Positions 1,375-64,000 of a stretch of DNA of 64,000 nucleotides are shown here, one piece after another. The translations under genes were made by a program, and so were the position numbers. The first letter of the stretch is position 1. Each line of letters begins with the position of its first letter. The DNA comes from a virus, in UHGV virus genome UHGV-0293664; one strand, given 5' to 3'. The notes beneath the pieces were generated by a model that was given only the letters and a program-made list of their open reading frames with translations, had not been told where the DNA came from and did no database searches.

Positions 1375-4300
1375 TGCCAATTGCAATGATTGATAACATC
1401 GTTGCTTCTGCAAGATCTTCAAGTTATGACTGGAACGCATCCAAGGCAGCTCTGGCTGACAGCCTGAACACTGTTACCACCAGAACTCTGGATAAGATTT
1501 TTGAGGGCAACAAATCTTACAGAAGTCAGCAAGATAGACAAAAGCTTCTCAGATCTTCTGCTGCACCCTGCTCTGTAGTGTATGGGAAGACACGCACATC
1601 CGGATTGCTTGCGTTTTTGGAGCAGGACAGAGACAGAACCCTCCATTGTGCTATTGTTCTTGCCAATCATCCTCTAGAAGGTATAGAAGACATACTCATC
1701 GACGGTAATCCTATTTCCTCGTATGGAGATCTGGTATCGTGGGAGCTACATAACGACAGAAAAACATCTGATCCTTTCATGGGTACACACTGCCCATCAT
1801 GGTCACCTGACATGATAGGTAGAGGGATCAGTTGGCTACGTGCCAGCTTCAGGTTTGACCCTAACAAGTTTCCTTTTGGGTTGCCAAACGTTACACTCGT
1901 TAAGGTTGGTAAAAAATGCTATGATCCTCGCATCAGTAAAGAGGTGTATACCAATAACGCGGCCTTGGTGATTCTAGACTATTTAAGAACGTACCTTAAA
2001 TGTCCTGACGAAACCATCAACTGGGAGTCCTTCAAGGAGGCTGCTAACATATGCGACGAGGCGGTAAAAAACGCAGACGGAACCAGTGAGCGCCGATACA
2101 CCATTAATGGCGAGTTTGACATGGACGAGGCTCCGGCAAGCATTATGGCAGAAATGCTGAAAGCTTGTGGCGCAGATCTCAGCTATGTAGCTGGTAAGTA
2201 TGGTTTGCTGGTTGGTGCATACTATGGCCCGGCAACAATGACGCTGAGTGAGGATTGTGTCTGTGGTGAGGTTAAGATCTATCCGGAAGCCTCGTTTGAC
2301 AAAAGATCCAACACAATAACTGGCAGATTCACCAGTCCGACCAAAGGGTATTCTGAAACAGATTTTCCATCAGTGTTTGTCCCAGAGTGGATAGAGAAGG
2401 ATGGAGAAAGAAAGATAATCGATATAGACTACCGCTTTGTTACCAGCCCTTATCAAGCTCAGCGTGTTTCTGCAATATTTTTAAGACGTGCTAGAGCTGG
2501 CAGGATTATTGAAGTCACCTGCAATATGCGAGGTTTTAAATTTAAACCTGGCCGTTACGTTACAATGAATCTCCCAAGTATTGGTATAGTGGGCCAAGAA
2601 ATGAGGGTTCTTGAGTGGGAGTTCACCAAAAAGGGCGGTGTCAAGGTAAAACTTCGTCAAGATGCTAAAGAGTGGAATGATGCCACAGGGCAACTTCCGG
2701 ATTCTGGCGATGTAGATATTCCGATATCCCCATCCGGTGTAGCTCAACCGCAAAACTTCAGATACTCCGTCCTCCAAGCTGGGGAAATAACTCACGGTGT
2801 TCTGGCTTGGGACAACGTTGGGACTTACGCTCAAAATATTGTGCAGGTAAGAAAGAACGGAGAGATTGTTTGGACAGCACAGACAGTTGAGCAGTTTGTC
2901 CGAGTAGAAGGCTTGACCAAAGGGTCATACACAGCAACCGTGGTTGCAACATCCTATAAAGGTGGTGTATCTCCAGAAGCGTACTGCGAGTTTAACATTC
3001 AGGCACCTGAAGCTCCGGTTTCTGTAGAGGTTAAGCAGGGATATTTCGCTATCACCTTGATTCCGCATAGTAGGGATTTAGCAAGCGTAAGCACCCAGTA
3101 TGACTTTTGGACATCTGGTATGACAAGGTTGCCAGACACCAGTGATGCTACCGTTACTTCAAAAGCCACCCGTATGGGTGTTGGTTCAACTTGGACGTCT
3201 GAAGGTCTCCAGAACGATAAGGTTTATTATTGGTATATTCGAACCACAAACGCTTTTGGTAGCTCTCAGTTTGTAGAATGCGCTGCACGCTGCTATACCT
3301 CTATTGAGGATTTGATGCCTCAGATAGATGCTGAATTCAAAAAGACAGAAACTTATAAAGAGTTGATGAGCACTTTGGATTCCTCTATTGAAGAGGTTGA
3401 AAATCGTGTCACAGAACTTAACAGGTACATGGATGGTAGGGTAGATGAAGCGTTCCAACAACTTGGGGACAGAATAGGTGCGGTAGTTACAGAAACAACT
3501 CAGAAGTTTGAAGATGTCAATGGTAACATTACAGCGCTGGATAGGAAACTTGTTGCTGCACAGAACAAATTCACCAACGATCTGAACACTGAAAGTGGCA
3601 GACTGGCATCTCTGATCGAGACAACCAATAAAGCAACTACTGATCTTCTGAACAAAAAGACAGAGGCTTTAGATGAGAAATTGGTTGCCGCCAAAGGTGA
3701 GCTGGTAGAGCAGATAGAGGGAGTTGAGAGCGGGTATTTAGCCGGAGATAAAACTCTGGATGGTAAGATCAATACTCAGAGAACAGAACTTGACGCAAGC
3801 ATCTTGAGCACTAACCAGGCAACTGTGGATCTTTTGAACAGGACATCTGAAACTCTGGATCAAAAGATCAGTCAGACAAACGCGACGGTATCTAAAAACT
3901 ATACCACCCTGGATGGCAAGATAACCACCGCAAAAACTGACCTCAACACCTTGATTGCCAATACCAACAAGGCCACCACTGACTTGTTGAATCAGAAAAC
4001 ATCTGCACTGTCAGAGCAGATAACTTCTGCACGTGGGGAGATTTCTACCAACAAGCAGGCGATTGATGCTTTGGATGGAAAACTGACTTCCACAAAAACA
4101 GCGCTGGATGCTACAATTTCCGATACCAACAAAGCCACTGTGGACCTTATCAACGGCACAGCGTCAGCTATTCGTCAAGAACTTGCTGTTGCTAAGCAGG
4201 AGATCATTGATGATGTTGGGGATGTGTCCGAGATCAGGGCTGCAGTAGCTACAACATCTAAGGCTGTAACCGACTTGGAGGGTAAAGTAAATGCTCAGTG

Positions 4301-11645: not shown

Positions 11646-12689
11646 ATGACTAAACCAGTTATCCCTCTTGATATTTGGGCCAATCAGGATGTTGTGCTTG
11701 AAAATACGGGAGAGTTGAATAAATCTCAACCAAAAAAAGAAGAGAGATTGAAAGGTTGGGATATGACACAAAGAATGGCATGTGAAGTTGTTAACTTTGA
11801 ACTTCACATGCTTTCTGCGTGGTTGAAGCATTTAACAGAAGATGTTGTCCCAGGATGGGATAATAGATTCTTAAGGGTCACTAATAACCTAGCAGACGTT
11901 CCAGACAAAGCTGCTGCACGTCAAGTTCTCAATGTATACTCACCTGAAGAAATGGACGATCTATATGTTGACAAGTCTGGAGACATAATGACTCAGACTC
12001 AAACTTTAGGTCTTCAAAGAATCGAGTTTGCATCTGCGTCAACAGACAGTGCGGCAATATACACCACCATAACTCCAGACAAGACGACGATGGATTTCTG
12101 GATTATGGACAACATCGGTGGTGCTGACGGCACAGACCTTGATGATCCTTCTCACCAAATAGACGGGTTCCGTTGGAGATTTCAACCTTCTGGTGGGCAG
12201 CCTGTGTTTTCGGCTATGAAGCTCAATGCTATAACTGCCAACCGTGCAAGACTGGCTATCCAAGGAAATCTTGAATGTAACGATGCAAAAAGTTCCTCTG
12301 CAAATGCCAATGCGGTCACGATACCAAGAGCCACTGTTAACGGACAACAATCCTGCGGAAGCGCTCAAATAGGTGGAAGAGTTGATTGTAACGATGAAAC
12401 CGTTAGGGGCCAATATGCAACCGTTGGTGGAAGAAACGTGGTCCGCAGGGTAAATGGTAACAGCGCAGACGGTAGTGGTAACCTTACTATCCCTATGCCT
12501 AGCAGAGGGGTTGATGATGTAAGGATAGCGAACCGTTTCAAAACCACCTACAGAGAGTCAAGAGTCTACCCTGGACATGTGATGTGCTCTGGTAACTACG
12601 CCTATAAACACCCTTATCAAGGTGATTACTGGACAGGTGCTATCCAAAAACTTGTAAATGGTCAATGGATCACTATATCTTATGCTTAA
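11646..12689 (+). CDS. Tail fibre / receptor-binding protein, paralog B
   Basis: 347 aa; N-term MTKPVIPLDIWA and C-term KLVNGQWITISYA shared with 9591..10631. Confidence 0.65.
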   Translation: MTKPVIPLDIWANQDVVLENTGELNKSQPKKEERLKGWDMTQRMACEVVNFELHMLSAWLKHLTEDVVPGWDNRFLRVTNNLADVPDKAAARQVLNVYSPEEMDDLYVDKSGDIMTQTQTLGLQRIEFASASTDSAAIYTTITPDKTTMDFWIMDNIGGADGTDLDDPSHQIDGFRWRFQPSGGQPVFSAMKLNAITANRARLAIQGNLECNDAKSSSANANAVTIPRATVNGQQSCGSAQIGGRVDCNDETVRGQYATVGGRNVVRRVNGNSADGSGNLTIPMPSRGVDDVRIANRFKTTYRESRVYPGHVMCSGNYAYKHPYQGDYWTGAIQKLVNGQWITISYA

Positions 12690-52945: not shown

Positions 52946-53191
52946 TTTTACCTGCCAGGATATTTTAAAATCCTTAGAAAATCAGAAAATGGATCGAAAA
53001 CTAAAATGGATTTTTCAGGGCAGGCACGACGAGATGAACCACTCATCCTGTCGTTTGCACCATATTCCAGACCACCATTACAGATTTCCCGCACATGCTT
53101 ACATCCTTCTACTGGAACTTCCTCCGCTTGCCCTTGACCTTTTATGGTAATAATCCAACCACTATCTTGAAGTTGCGATGCAGCTTTTCAG

Positions 53192-53354
53192 GTACTCGAT
53201 CTGTTTTTCGTTTCAAAGATTGAATTTTCTGAAAATTTTTCTCGATAAATTTCTCAGTACTCGATCTGTTTTTCGTTTTCTGAATCGGATTTTCTGGAAA
53301 TCGTTCCGGCTCTCGACCTGAAATTTTTGGGGACGAAATCGATTTTTCGTTTTC
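53192..53354. repeat. Iteron-like direct repeats, three copies
   Basis: Repeat unit TCGATYTKTTTTTCGTTTTC at 53192-53214, 53257-53280 and 53334-53354 in AT-rich non-coding DNA. Confidence 0.7.
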
Positions 53355-53481
53355 AGAAATGGATTTTTAAAATTTCTATATGGGAATATTTTATGGGATA
53401 CTGTTTTATAGGAAATTGTTACGGAGGGTAATTAGCGTGCTAATTAAATTTATGAAATGCGAGGAGTTCTCATTTAGAATT

Positions 53482-53500
53482 TTGAATGATAATCATTCTC
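53482..53500. promoter_or_regulatory. Fur-box-like palindrome A
   Basis: TTGAATGATAATCATTCTC matches 15 of 19 positions of the E. coli Fur consensus; contains perfect palindrome GAATGAT-A-ATCATTC. Confidence 0.4.
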
Positions 53501-53514
53501 GTTTGCAGAATAAC

Positions 53515-53538
53515 GGGCACCCCCGGTGATTGTCTCCC
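53515..53538. repeat. GC-rich conserved element, copy 1
   Basis: GGGCACCCCCGGTGATTGTCTCCC; related copies at 53655 and, inverted, 62331. Confidence 0.6.
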
Positions 53539-53617
53539 GGCCCCTGTTGCCCCGGCTTGTTATTATAGTATCACACAGGACAAAGAAAGCAAGGACTTTT
53601 TGCATAAATTTTTAGAC

Positions 53618-53636
53618 GATAATGATAATCGTTCTC
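53618..53636. promoter_or_regulatory. Fur-box-like palindrome B
   Basis: GATAATGATAATCGTTCTC matches 17 of 19 positions of the Fur consensus. Confidence 0.5.
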
Positions 53637-53654
53637 ATTTCATGCAGCGCCCAT

Positions 53655-53692
53655 CCCCGGTGGTTGTCTCCCCCGTCACCGGTGCCTGCCGT
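53655..53692. repeat. GC-rich conserved element, copy 2
   Basis: CCCCGGTGGTTGTCTCCCCCGTCACCGGTGCCTGCCGT; reverse complement of 62331-62378 is near-identical. Confidence 0.6.
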
Positions 53693-53844
53693 CCTTTCGA
53701 TATGTATATTGTGCCACCTGGCGGGGCCGCTGTCAACACTTTTCAAAAAATTTTTCTAACCTGATGCGCTAACCGTTGCAACCTGGCGGGGCCAGCCTGG
53801 CAGGTCCGCGTTATAAAGTAAACAGCTACGGAAGAGGTACAAAA

Positions 53845-54768: not shown

Positions 54769-54796
54769 TTGACACGCTGCAAAATTAAAGTAAACT
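54769..54796 (+). promoter_or_regulatory. sigma70-like promoter
   Basis: TTGACA, 16-nt spacer, TAAACT; followed by GGCGGGAATATTTCCCGCC leader palindrome. Confidence 0.5.
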
Positions 54797-54844
54797 AGAC
54801 ACAAAAGGCGGGAATATTTCCCGCCAACACAAAGGAAAAAGATC

Positions 54845-55449: not shown

Positions 55450-55478
55450 TTGACAAGCTAACCCAAATCGGTATACTT
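55450..55478 (+). promoter_or_regulatory. sigma70-like promoter
   Basis: TTGACA, 16-17-nt spacer, TATACT; followed by GGGAAAACTTCCC leader palindrome. Confidence 0.55.
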
Positions 55479-55528
55479 AAACACGTAAACGGGAAAACTT
55501 CCCAAAACACACAAAAGGAGAAAACACC

Positions 55529-57067: not shown

Positions 57068-57328
57068 ATGCGTAAATTAAAAAATTTTGATAAAGTCGAT
57101 ATTGTCCTGAATAATTTTTACTACTGCAATAATAAAGCCGTTTGGTGGCGTGATAGTTCCACCGATAAAGTTAAAGCGCGCTTTCTCCAGGGGCACTGGC
57201 AAGGCCGCCCAGTGATTAAGATCCTGGGGCAATCGGTAGCGTTTAAAAATTGCCGCCGTGTTGATGACGTTGAAGAGATTCTAAACATTTTACGCCACAA
57301 TAATTTAAAAAATAGTGTTGACAAGTAA
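57068..57328 (+). CDS. Small hypothetical protein
   Basis: 86 aa; AGGAAGGAG RBS. Confidence 0.5.
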   Translation: MRKLKNFDKVDIVLNNFYYCNNKAVWWRDSSTDKVKARFLQGHWQGRPVIKILGQSVAFKNCRRVDDVEEILNILRHNNLKNSVDK

Positions 57329-57346
57329 ATCTTGATAAGTATACTT
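57318..57346 (+). promoter_or_regulatory. sigma70-like promoter
   Basis: TTGACA, 17-nt spacer, ATACTT; followed by GGCGGGAAAACTTCCCGCC leader palindrome. Confidence 0.55.
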
Positions 57347-57402
57347 AAACACACAGGCGGGAAAACTTCCCGCCACTAACAAAGAAAATAGGAGAAAATA
57401 TC

Positions 57403-58034: not shown

Positions 58035-58062
58035 TTGCAATAACCTAAAAACCTGCTATATT
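58035..58062 (+). promoter_or_regulatory. sigma70-like promoter
   Basis: TTGCAA, 16-nt spacer, TATATT; followed by GGGGCAAGACGTTTGCCCC hairpin. Confidence 0.45.
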
Positions 58063-58115
58063 AAAACTCAAGGGGCAAGACGTTTGCCCCCACACAAAAC
58101 AAAGAGGAAAACATC

Positions 58116-61151: not shown

Positions 61152-61176
61152 CAACGTTTTAAATTAGTTTAAGATG
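61148..61176 (+). promoter_or_regulatory. sigma70-like promoter
   Basis: TTGACA then TAAGAT; shares TAAGATGTATCACGTAGGG with promoter at 61997. Confidence 0.5.
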
Positions 61177-61232
61177 TATCACGTAGGGGAGACAAGCGCC
61201 CTATTAAACGCAACAGGAAGAGGATAAACACC

Positions 61233-61481: not shown

Positions 61482-61509
61482 TTGACACTGTTTTTTATTC
61501 TGGTATAGT
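61482..61509 (+). promoter_or_regulatory. sigma70-like promoter
   Basis: TTGACA, 16-nt spacer, TATAGT. Confidence 0.55.
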
Positions 61510-61651
61510 TTATCACATAGGACGGCACGACAGAGTACTACGGATTCGAGGGTGTCCGGTGCGGTGAACTTGCTCGCGACCTTAAGGAAGATCCAGACCT
61601 GGAAGATCTGCCCATCACCGTAAACGGGAAAACTTACGTAAACCGTTAACC

Positions 61652-61786
61652 ATGAGAAAGATAATCATCACCTTGGGGATTGTGGCGGGATCGCTGGCGC
61701 TCTTTCCCCTTATGGTTAGATATGTGCTGATCAGTATTGTCCTGATAGTTAGTGATTTATTGGAAACGGTTGGCACCTTGTTTTAA
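61652..61786 (+). CDS. Small hydrophobic peptide
   Basis: 44 aa ORF below track cutoff; almost entirely hydrophobic; weak RBS. Confidence 0.3.
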   Translation: MRKIIITLGIVAGSLALFPLMVRYVLISIVLIVSDLLETVGTLF

Positions 61787-61798
61787 AGAGCGGTAAAA

Positions 61799-61990
61799 AT
61801 GAATATCGAACAAGTTAGAAAGGTATTGGCGGTACTGCGTTATCATAATCATAGAAAGGTCATAGACGATCCTGATTATGTCGATTCAAGCCTGGAAGGG
61901 GATACACTACAAGCCATAAGCAACATGCAAGAATTGCTAAAGCGCATGACAGAGAAAAACAGATCTGATTATATAGGTGACGAGATCTAA
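61799..61990 (+). CDS. Small hypothetical protein
   Basis: 63 aa; weak RBS. Confidence 0.4.
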   Translation: MNIEQVRKVLAVLRYHNHRKVIDDPDYVDSSLEGDTLQAISNMQELLKRMTEKNRSDYIGDEI

Positions 61991-61996
61991 AATAGC

Positions 61997-62024
61997 TTGC
62001 ACAATGTATCTGATAGTGTAAGAT
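61997..62024 (+). promoter_or_regulatory. sigma70-like promoter
   Basis: TTGCAC then TAAGAT; paralogous to promoter at 61148. Confidence 0.45.
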
Positions 62025-62074
62025 GTATCACGTAGGGCGGCAATAGTGCCGCTCACAACTGGAAGGAAAACACC

Positions 62075-62278
62075 ATGACTACAGCTAACCGCCTGATCGC
62101 CGTCCTGAACAAAGCAAAGGCTAACCGCCTGGATGTTCAAATCAAAGAGCAAGCAAATGGCGAGATCCTTGCTACGGTGTCCGATGGCGGTTATGTATCG
62201 GAATCATTTTTATCAGGGAGCTTAGATCATCTTGTTTGGAAATTAGAAATTATCGTGGAGGATATGCAGATCATCTAA
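62075..62278 (+). CDS. Small hypothetical protein
   Basis: 67 aa; GGAAGGA RBS. Confidence 0.5.
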   Translation: MTTANRLIAVLNKAKANRLDVQIKEQANGEILATVSDGGYVSESFLSGSLDHLVWKLEIIVEDMQII

Positions 62279-62283
62279 TCTTT

Positions 62284-62318
62284 ACAAAACAGGGCTTGTT
62301 TTTATCCTGTTTTTTGTT
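62284..62318 (+). terminator. Possible rho-independent terminator
   Basis: AAAACAGG...CCTGTTTT stem with long loop then TTTTTGTT. Confidence 0.4.
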
Positions 62319-62330
62319 ATACTTGTTTCA

Positions 62331-62378
62331 CGGCAGGCACCTGGCGACGGGGGGAGACAATCACCGTGGGTGCCTGTC
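62331..62378. repeat. GC-rich conserved element, copy 3 (inverted)
   Basis: Reverse complement aligns closely with 53655-53692; GGCAGGCACC...GGTGCCTGTC can form about a 10-bp stem. Confidence 0.6.
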
Positions 62379-62399
62379 ATGTAAGAACTATAAAAACCG

Positions 62400-62428
62400 T
62401 TGACATCTGCCAGGGGGTGGGGTAACAT
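62400..62428 (+). promoter_or_regulatory. sigma70-like promoter
   Basis: TTGACA, 17-nt spacer, TAACAT. Confidence 0.5.
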
Positions 62429-62482
62429 TTATCTTGAAGGGGCAAAAGTGCCCACACAACAACCAGAAGAGAGGAAAACATT

Positions 62483-62755
62483 ATGTCAAGCTGGATTAAT
62501 CAAGAAGTCGAATCACGTTTTAATGCTATTTGGGATCTCATCGAAAAAGAGGACGGAACATCAAGCCCCTACCTCAACAATTTGGAATTCCATTTTGTGG
62601 AAGCGATGAACGCAGAACATGATCACGAAGGTGGTGCGGATGAATTCGCTAAAGGATATGGCTTCAACAATGCCAACGAAATGATCGAGGCGGTTGTACT
62701 CCAGGCTGAGGAAGATTATCAATTAAAAACGCTTGAATTCTGCCGCCGTAAGTAA
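62483..62755 (+). CDS. Small acidic protein
   Basis: 90 aa; AGAGAGGAAAAC RBS. Confidence 0.5.
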   Translation: MSSWINQEVESRFNAIWDLIEKEDGTSSPYLNNLEFHFVEAMNAEHDHEGGADEFAKGYGFNNANEMIEAVVLQAEEDYQLKTLEFCRRK

Positions 62756-62817
62756 TAAGATAATGACACGGGCCAAAAGGCCCACTAAACAAAAACCACA
62801 TAAAGAGGAAAAACATC

Positions 62818-63081
62818 ATGAAACGCCTTGATCAGCTCAAATTAGTTCAATATATGGCTTATCGTGTTCTTGAAGTCCAGAAAGGTAGCAAAAAAGAGGT
62901 TTGCGAGAAAGCTTATAAGATCTTCACTCGCAAAAAAGATGACTGGATGCTACGCCAGACCAAAAAGGCTGACATCTTGGGGTACCTGGAAGAAGAGATC
63001 CGACTTGAAGAGCAAGAAGAGATCCGCCGTAGTGAGGCAGATTATCAGGCCGCTTGGGAAAACTGGATGAGCAACAAATAA
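62818..63081 (+). CDS. Small hypothetical protein
   Basis: 87 aa; AAGAGGAAAAAC RBS. Confidence 0.5.
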   Translation: MKRLDQLKLVQYMAYRVLEVQKGSKKEVCEKAYKIFTRKKDDWMLRQTKKADILGYLEEEIRLEEQEEIRRSEADYQAAWENWMSNK

Positions 63082-63100
63082 TACAACAAGGTGCACGGTC

Positions 63101-63117
63101 AGGGGCTTAAAGCCCCT
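63101..63117 (+). terminator. Hairpin, possible weak terminator
   Basis: AGGGGCT-TAA-AGCCCCT; no clear T-run; same core as 63663 hairpin. Confidence 0.35.
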
Positions 63118-63146
63118 TGATCACATAAAAATTATGCTATCCCTGG

Positions 63147-63175
63147 TTGACAGGGATCGGCAGTTTTGCTATATT
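63147..63175 (+). promoter_or_regulatory. sigma70-like promoter
   Basis: TTGACA, 17-nt spacer, TATATT. Confidence 0.6.
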
Positions 63176-63224
63176 CTTTTTTGAAGGGAAGTTGTAAGAA
63201 AATTAACTAAGAGGTAAAAACACC

Positions 63225-63644
63225 ATGAACATTAAATCTAATAATCCGGCATATAGCTTTGATAACGCTTTTTGTCACGGTCCGGCGGCGAAAGGATTCG
63301 AAATCGATGGTAAACTAATTATTGTCAATGTTGACGGGGAAGAGGTTGCAGTATATCCGGTGGCAGACGTAAAAAGCCGTTTACAATGCCGCATGGATGT
63401 TACCGCCTATCAGCTTGATCCGGTCCGCATAGTTGCCCTGGTCCTGGAGGAAGAAATTAAAGCCATGCACCATAGCAACAGGTTTATTGGTGACGCTCAG
63501 GATAATATGAAGGTGTGCCGCCATAAAGTTAATGAAGTGCTTAAAGAGTACGGCTATAAGGATTTAATGATCAAGCGTGATGAAAAATTCCGCTACCGTA
63601 ACGACCTGGCAAATCGGATTTTTGAAATATACGAATCATTATAA
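63225..63644 (+). CDS. Hypothetical protein
   Basis: 139 aa; AAGAGGTAAAAAC RBS. Confidence 0.55.
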   Translation: MNIKSNNPAYSFDNAFCHGPAAKGFEIDGKLIIVNVDGEEVAVYPVADVKSRLQCRMDVTAYQLDPVRIVALVLEEEIKAMHHSNRFIGDAQDNMKVCRHKVNEVLKEYGYKDLMIKRDEKFRYRNDLANRIFEIYESL

Positions 63645-63662
63645 TTTCTTAACTGAATTATC

Positions 63663-63690
63663 AAGGGGCTTAAAGGCCCCTTTCTTTTTG
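63663..63690 (+). terminator. Rho-independent terminator
   Basis: AAGGGGC-TTAAAG-GCCCCTT hairpin then TTTCTTTTT. Confidence 0.7.
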
Positions 63691-64000
63691 TCTGCTCTTC
63701 TCCTACCATAAACGGCCCTACCTGGCAAGTGGAATAATTGACTAGCCATCAATCCCACACACTGTACAAATATACATGGAAAATAACTATTGCATAATTT
63801 TTCATTGTGTGGTAGCAAGTCCATTTTTACCCGTTTTCTCTCCCAAAATTGCACGTAATGCCGCTATTGCACAAATTTTAACCTGATGCACATCTCCAAT
63901 ATCTTGTCAACAACTAAAAATCTTTATAAGTCATACACTTACACAGCATCGAAAGCGTGTTCTACGCGAAAAATCGAGTATAACTATAGCCGCCAGATCT

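Follow-up and report, generated by a model that had tools for sequence, protein, structure and literature searches.

A GC-rich element at 62331-62378 of the 64,000-nt stretch of virus genome UHGV-0293664 analysed here (the window) raises the question of what kind of signal recurs within one phage genome in both orientations. The original prediction, made from the letters alone, described three copies and proposed a mobile or protein-bound DNA element or a structured RNA rather than chance similarity. The answer reached below is that the element is previously undescribed and is best read, on the available sequence comparisons, as a promoter-proximal transcribed leader signal.

When positions 61500-64000 were compared with phage records, 215 matches were obtained, nearly all to Vequintavirus (rV5-like E. 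coli myophages) at 93-97% identity, and the source of the window is accordingly identified by similarity as an rV5-like coliphage. From about 53.8 kb to the window end lies a row of small early genes on the + strand. Each has a strong sigma-70 promoter, and most of the predicted transcripts start with a GC-rich 5' hairpin. Several of these early promoters (54769-54830, 55450-55510, 57318-57380, 58035-58090 and 62400-62460) form repeat families with A/T-rich tracts upstream, spacers that are often GC-rich (for example CTGCCAGG), and a transcript 5' end made up of a GC-rich hairpin followed by ACACAA. Just past the window's right end, rV5 has about 2.6 kb without annotated genes (104013-106618) between the convergent ORF163 and ORF164; the assemblies of several relatives begin within the equivalent of this gene-free region, which may mark physical genome ends or a repeat. 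More than 12 GenBank records of the MG0656xx series (loci L137-L141 and L144), labelled 'Campylobacter phage' and UNVERIFIED, are ordinary rV5-like Vequintavirus genomes. The rV5 paper describes sigma-70 promoters only, and the replication origin could not be placed (PMC3606486). A literature search found no transcriptome of rV5-like phages and no paper on the GC-rich element or its adjoining Fur boxes. Apart from predicted sigma-70 promoters, regulation is essentially uncharted in these phages, which are widely used in E. coli O157 biocontrol and in phage therapy.

A family profile built from 22 members was searched across the 64-kb window and identified only three sites, at E = 6e-14, 7e-13 and 5e-5; these are copies A, B and C, the match to copy C being 62328-62380 on the + strand (E = 7e-13). 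Based on profile match and alignment, copy A (53506-53560) and copy B (53646-53691) have the window minus strand as their sense strand. Copy C, a GC-rich leader that spans 62329-62383 and contains 62331-62378, has the G-rich window + strand as its sense strand and is inverted relative to the other two. Against copy B (53650-53691), the reverse complement of 62331-62378 aligns with 36 identities in 42 columns and two 1-nt gaps; with copy A it shares 23 of 25 contiguous bases, past which the similarity continues with gaps. With at most one mismatch, the core CCGGTGATTGTCTCCCC has three sites (53523-53539 +, 53657-53673 + and 62351-62367 -), compared with 0.13 matches expected from shuffles, and none of 100 shuffles reached three. 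The profile and core searches thus agree with the original prediction on three copies, one of them inverted, and the shuffled core counts and profile E-values place the similarity beyond chance, as had been proposed. The element had also been called near-identical to copy B; the similarity is real, and the wording is generous because the identity is about 86-90% and limited to about 30-42 nt. A look-alike of a minimal element, CGTAGGGGAGACAAGCGCCCTATTA, lies at 61175-61200 in the leader of gene 61233 and could fold into a small hairpin whose loop contains GAGACAAGCG; the family profile gives it no significant score.

Among about 130 Vequintavirus genomes, the element occurs at no more than three places each. 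In the genomes that were fetched, copies A, B and C occupy constant syntenic sites; C lies on the strand opposite to A and B, at a distance of about 7.4-9.6 kb. Copy C is conserved in about 116 Vequintavirus records and has a diverged form in Phapecoctavirus. Phapecoctavirus 536P1 has its A-like copy at 2741-2796 (-) and its C-like copy at 12043-12082 (+), separated by 9.3 kb and inverted as in the window, and in phage anhysbys the C-like unit lies between gp106 and gp107, with an A-like copy in the same inverted geometry. The C-like copy comes after a terminator and a TATACT box in both phages. The segment 62287-62366, which comprises the terminator, -10, left arm and box of copy C, matches many Phapecoctavirus and some Cronobacter and Salmonella phages, and by these comparisons copy C predates the genus.

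This distribution bears directly on the proposal of a mobile element. Copies in two orientations and a possible hairpin are features that a MITE-like or REP-like miniature element would have. However, the mobile-element reading is rejected because the copies number no more than three per genome and are always syntenic, in over 100 genomes of two subfamilies. Neither terminal inverted repeats nor target duplications were found, no empty sites were seen in the sampled records, and BLAST searches of 5,426 E. coli genomes returned no copy, a result that also led us to reject a host origin. A miniature mobile element is the least credible of the explanations considered here, and the element is most likely the start of a non-coding transcript.

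Within the element, the box RAGAYAAWCACC is invariant in all copies and is usually followed directly by GGGG. In copy C it reads GAGACAATCACC (62354-62365, +), a sequence that is constant in every sampled Vequintavirus C copy while the flanking arms vary. The box reads AAGATAATCACC in the Phapecoctavirus C-like unit and holds two additional bases in the 4MG clade (GAGTACAAAACACC). To compare the surroundings of the box, 26 copies and orthologues were aligned on the G-rich strand. In this alignment, -10-like AT-rich hexamers (TATAAT, TATACT, TATTCT, TATATT, GATAAT and TATTAT) share one column block. The distance from the -10 hexamer to the box GAGACAAWCACC is 22-29 nt, reaching 37 nt in copy B, and always runs along the G-rich strand; at this distance, the box would occupy about +15 to +35 of the transcript. 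On the G-rich strand, 21 of 30 copies and orthologues have a promoter that matches at 9/12 or better in the expected place, compared with 4.9% of random 60-nt windows and 1 of 30 on the opposite strand. For copy A, the alignment places the -10 TATAAT at 53567-53562 (-). The copy B promoter (TTGACA-17-CACAAT, 53708-53736, -) scores 10/12 and resembles other early promoters of the window in its upstream TG and A/T-rich, UP-like region. All three copies therefore have a predicted layout in common, namely a promoter followed by a G-rich leader that carries the box in this early interval. The inversion of copy C follows from the same layout, since its promoter would fire rightward with the early genes and those of A and B leftward.

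Other identities for the element were considered and set aside. Short ORFs that cover the copies (GTG or CTG starts, 4-19 codons) have no start, frame or stop conserved among relatives, and the annotated ORF198 of rV5 merely covers copies A and B. In a by-eye comparison, neither a G-quadruplex, a sigma-70-dependent pause, sigma-54, sigma-E, Chi nor KOPS fits the invariant positions, and the same comparison of alignments gave no fit for DnaA, IHF or CRISPR-repeat mimicry. The neighbouring proteins offered no functional clue.

The setting of copy C is compact. A weak terminator-like hairpin (ACAGG...CCTGT followed by T6, 62289-62316, +) ends the upstream gene; it has a 5-bp stem and a 12-nt loop and is not called by the terminator scan. 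The predicted copy C promoter (TTGTTT-16-TATACT, 62296-62323, +, 8/12) has its -35 inside the loop of this terminator and its -10 right past the T-run, with a predicted start near 62330. In rV5, the orthologous terminator is clearly called with 11 pairs (10608-10581) and overlaps the promoter TTGCAA-16-TATACT (10598-10571), which has an upstream TG, scores 9/12 and is called by the scan inside the terminator. The corresponding promoter of LL12-type genomes is TTGACT-17-TATTCT. On the other side of copy C, the next early promoter (TTGACA-17-TAACAT, 62400-62428, +, 10/12) is the equivalent of rV5 P168 and serves the gene starting at 62483. The original placement of copy C between a terminator and a promoter is therefore sound for the promoter, and its terminator is weak and uncalled in the window and clear in rV5. 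Between these features, folding predicts a hairpin with CAGGCACC as its 5' arm (62334-62341) and GGTGCCTG as its 3' arm (62369-62376), both on the + strand. This 8-bp stem is extendable to 13 pairs with one mismatch, in keeping with the stem of about 10 bp described originally, and the box lies in the unpaired loop. The fold has an MFE of -26 kcal/mol, with z = -3.1 for the + strand and z = -4.8 for the - strand. No U-run that would make the hairpin an intrinsic terminator follows it on either strand (tails CAUGUAAG, +, and GAAACAAG, -), and the scan calls no terminator at the element. The best description of copy C is a transcribed leader, bearing the invariant box, within a composite terminator-promoter cassette.

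The hairpin of copy C is not a general property of the family. Folding is better than in shuffles only for copy C, for the Certrevirus orthologues (z = -3.2 and -3.7) and for locus L047 (z = -5.7). Copy A (z of about +1), copy B (z = -1.8), and the copies of Seunavirus, Mydovirus, Phapecoctavirus and an unrelated 46.8-kb contig described below fold no better than shuffles. RNAalifold gave no consensus structure across the family, and in a manual two-tier structure 70.3% of cells were paired versus 69.5% in shuffles, with no covariation above shuffles. The box is unpaired in nearly all predicted folds, and the G-U pairs of a putative outer stem are compatible only with the G-rich strand as RNA. 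Because the folds are limited to particular lineages and show no covariation, the conserved entity is the box and its position rather than a helix. The structured RNA of the original prediction thus has partial support, from the folds of copy C and the Certrevirus orthologues, and none from those of A, B and most other lineages.

Comparison with known RNAs gave no family assignment. The window has no Rfam match at gathering score, and at E-value thresholds none was credible in the window and six related loci. Pairing with the host sRNA CpxQ was rejected since its complementarity, computed with the K-12 sequence, is no better than in shuffled controls. The RfaH ops element, GGCGGTAGnnTG, acts on the non-template strand of the leader. 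This ops/JUMPStart sequence is absent from the window copies, which read GGCAACAG (A) and GGCAGGCA (B and C) instead. Among relatives, GGCGGTAG is present only in the leaders of L031 (near 2795) and L162 (near 1042), and GGCAGTAG in copy A of rV5 and FV3. We take GGCGGTAG to be the first 8 bases of the ops element, in a context that resembles JUMPStart.

Copies A and B lie within a non-coding stretch of about 650 bp (53190-53830). This stretch opens with three iteron-like direct repeats of 50-65 nt (53192-53380), each with an internal palindrome (CGAAA..TTTCG), which could be a replication origin; CR8 and CB7 have comparable repeats (GGGTCTCGATCG...) at the same place. With an 800-bp query, BLAST found 53456-53540 to be the only part conserved past the genus, at 80-90% identity in Certrevirus, Seunavirus, Mydovirus and Phapecoctavirus. 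Within this block, a Fur-box-like site is accompanied by copy A's left half. Copy A, which has orthologues in five genera, is the ancestral copy. The Fur-box-like site that adjoins copy A (TTGAATGATAATCATTCTC, 53482-53500, +) has 4 mismatches to the consensus, and the one that adjoins copy B (GATAATGATAATCGTTCTC, 53618-53636, +) has 2, with 0.01 matches expected by chance. These are the window's two best matches to the Fur consensus. The arrangement expected of a Fur-repressed operator, a near match to the 19-bp Fur box that overlaps a promoter, is present at copies A and B as predicted sites. All 15 lineages compared, which represent five genera, have a Fur-like site at a fixed offset of -43 from the core, or 41 nt in a single lineage. 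Several of these lineages have additional Fur-like sites upstream, and none is present at copy C. No leftward gene follows copies A and B, which would leave their transcripts antisense or non-coding.

Several further features adjoin the element in this region. One to four Fur-box-like palindromes of the AATGAGAATCATTCTCATT type adjoin it in five genera of strictly virulent phages (the window and loci L003, L004, L005, L126-L129 and L145-L152). A second element of about 100 nt (ACGCCACCCCACGGCGAAAAGGCGGGGCTAACG...GATCGCCGGTAG) with its own leftward promoter is found in L146-L150, L152, L004, L005 and L003; read on the G-rich strand, it lies in the 100-200 nt upstream of the promoter of the first element. 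It is conserved in Seunavirus, Mydovirus, Certrevirus and Phapecoctavirus, was not seen in the window and has no Rfam match. In several genera (L146, L004 and L003), a tandem GTAAA-N5-GTAAA, presumably a match to the CpxR-box consensus, precedes the promoter's -35 by about 10-20 nt; it is not present in the window.

The box is also found outside this phage group. A first IMG/VR pattern with 14 specified bases gave mostly chance matches, and a gapped pattern of Fur box plus core returned 10 loci. A scan for GGAGACAANCACCGGGG returned 23 loci, about half of which are chance matches within GC-rich coding DNA. Among these 23, contig IMGVR_UViG_3300027123_000194 (46.8 kb, from an uncultivated phage) matches no catalogued phage at the DNA level; it has at least 4 exact 17-nt boxes, pointing both ways, over about 7 kb. 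Its boxes (L098 and L158) read GGAGACAA[T/A]CACCGGGG. Each lies 22-23 nt past an extended -10 (TGnTATAAT), with a terminator before and a T-run after. About 80 nt past the box, a second promoter and a gene follow in three of the four copies and a terminator follows in the fourth; none of the copies has a Fur box. As predicted from its sequence, this layout has the same logic as copy C: terminator, promoter 1, box, promoter 2, gene. Additional instances of the box layout are present in L026, a 168-kb contig, and in L047, where a promoter is followed by an 8-bp stem (CCCCGGTG/CACCGGGG) with GGAGACAAT in the loop. That an unrelated phage uses the box too implies a common partner, perhaps a host factor, which is open to direct fishing.

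The copies and their places are observed, as are the alignment of their promoters, the conservation in two subfamilies and the use of the box by an unrelated phage; the function of the box is inferred. In the explanation that is ranked first, and that we hold with slightly less than even confidence, the box acts via the nascent leader RNA behind early promoters. Copy C would make up the first stretch of the transcript, about +1 to +55, from a sigma-70 early-type promoter situated inside the preceding terminator, such that terminator, promoter and leader form one composite cassette in the early-gene region. The box would be recognised in the nascent leader RNA by a partner acting in trans, which could be a protein or a complementary RNA; in copy C, the loop of a 5'-terminal hairpin would display it. 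Likely effects would be marking or stabilising of the transcript, or altered elongation by RNA polymerase, as at nut or put sites. Counting against this explanation, the copy C promoter scores only 8/12, stable folds are confined to the lineages given above with neither a consensus structure nor covariation above shuffles, copies A and B lead into no leftward gene, and an invariant, non-palindromic box equally fits a DNA-binding site. In that case, a sequence-specific protein of the phage or host bound at +15 to +35 would block or modulate this subset of early promoters. Such a DNA operator is consistent with the conserved part being a 12-17 nt sequence rather than a helix, with an invariant box between flanking arms that have diverged by about 30%, and with the Fur-box-like palindromes, other likely protein sites, that adjoin A and B. 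The variable distance of 22-37 nt between -10 and box argues against it, since helical phasing is not kept, as do the two additional bases in the box of the 4MG clade; moreover, the box has no palindromic symmetry, and the analysis identified no candidate for the binding protein. An operator is ranked below the RNA leader, and we consider it unlikely.

The Fur-like sites allow a different arrangement, in which a Fur-repressed rightward promoter at copy A, and perhaps at B, would oppose the leftward one and couple the genes at 62483-63644 to host iron status. At copy A, this rightward promoter (TTGAAT-18-CAGAAT) would be overlapped by the Fur box, and its C-rich transcript would be able to pair with the A leader in cis and, at 26 of 29 nt, with the C leader in trans. 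The constant offset of the Fur-like box in all lineages and the conservation of 53456-53540 past the genus fit such an antisense pair, as does the 90% complementarity that a repeat search gave for 53510-53538 (A) and 62352-62380 (C), a length of 29 nt. In 8 of 10 genomes, A and C also have the same left-arm variant, CACC or CAGG. However, two of the 10 genomes are discordant (Fisher p of about 0.08 before phylogenetic correction), and the agreement is confounded by descent. The central box base differs between A and C in one genome (L130 and L043), and the Phapecoctavirus A and C boxes differ at several positions and do not track each other. Trans-compensatory covariation of A and C was therefore rejected as not significant, which weakens the pairing. 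The rightward promoter is weak, at 8/12 and with a spacer of 18 nt, and Fur boxes are lacking at C and in the unrelated phage; an iron-responsive antisense pair is judged distinctly improbable. Slightly less probable again is a recombination linker, a PeSL-like terminator-promoter kept for module exchange whose box would itself have no function. The 67-codon gene 62075-62278 lies in an indel (61978-62283) whose right edge, 62283, is the start of the cassette. On the other side, 90% homology to some Phapecoctavirus genomes (62230-62366) stops at 62366, the exact end of the box. The cassette thus has mosaic junctions on both sides, and PeSLs are composite terminator-promoter motifs at indel boundaries (PMC4122927, PMC2839356). 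The gene is absent from many near relatives, for example phage nom, and about 90% identical in several Phapecoctavirus, and has therefore been exchanged horizontally as a cassette. Such a linker leaves unexplained the same 17-nt box in an unrelated phage without a catalogued DNA match, and a box that stays invariant while the homology flanks diverge. A replication-origin primer is very improbable. There, a G-rich RNA would hybridise to its template as an R-loop next to iterons and AT-rich DNA, as in T4 oriF and oriG or ColE1 RNA II. Copies A and B do point into the iteron-like repeats at 53192-53380, which have counterparts in CR8 and CB7, and the rV5 origin has not been placed. However, promoters and genes rather than iterons come after copy C and the four copies of the 46.8-kb contig, G-tract patterns are not conserved, and no replication initiator is recognisable nearby.

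Beyond the leader reading itself, a broader proposal, which we regard as doubtful, is that RAGAYAAWCACC(GGGG) is an undescribed leader signal shared by unrelated phages of Gram-negative hosts, either nut- or put-like or the seed of a shared sRNA, with an ancestral copy wired to Fur. If this proposal is true, the signal at about +15 to +35 behind dedicated early promoters would be read by RNA polymerase or a cofactor, or, in its sRNA-seed version, would define a phage small-RNA family aimed at a conserved host target. The ancestral copy of Vequintavirinae and Phapecoctavirus would be wired to host Fur boxes, and strictly virulent phages would therefore sense host iron status in their early control region. 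What is gained is a precisely defined, mutable box, together with predictions of where transcription starts, which 5'-end mapping could check. Also gained is a non-coding control region that is conserved and combines iterons, Fur-box-like sites and convergent promoters; it could show how a virulent phage reads host physiology.

The closest comparison for the cassette itself is PeSL (promoter-early stem-loop), the composite terminator-promoter cassettes of T4-type phages (PMC2839356, PMC4122927). Like copy C, these consist of a terminator stem-loop fused to a sigma-70 early promoter among small, variable early ORFs, and lie at indel or mosaic junctions, here the indel 61978-62283 and the homology end at 62366. 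PeSLs occur as many dispersed copies in T4-type phages, whereas the present element has 2-3 copies per genome in Vequintavirus. Past the -10 it has an additional leader, about 50 nt long, in which the invariant box lies; one of its copies is located in a conserved non-coding control region with Fur-box-like sites, and its box is shared with unrelated phages. At copy A, the predicted promoters recall a different system. The pR and pL promoters of coliphage 186 form a face-to-face switch with a cis-antisense overlap, and the leftward and rightward predicted promoters at copy A would likewise converge about 45-50 bp apart with the element as the overlap. Unlike in 186, convergence would be limited to A and perhaps B, does not extend to C or the unrelated phage, and involves a weak, putative rightward promoter. 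OmrA and OmrB are sibling small RNAs with a conserved 5' seed. The element resembles them in having several copies with their own promoters, divergent flanks and an invariant 12-17 nt near the 5' end, and one copy of the 46.8-kb contig ends in a terminator as a stand-alone sRNA would. In contrast to OmrA and OmrB, most copies, C among them, run into the next promoter and gene without an intervening terminator, and no target was identified. Finally, lambda nutL and nutR and HK022 putL and putR are promoter-proximal leader signals that act on the transcribing polymerase; the element matches them only in its promoter-proximal position and its opposite orientations. Unlike these sites, the element has no similarity to boxA or boxB and no consistently conserved hairpin, no N-like protein was found, and copies A and B have no downstream operon in their own direction. 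As with nut and put, the element would be a short, conserved early-leader signal present in one to few copies, in opposite orientations with opposed promoters.
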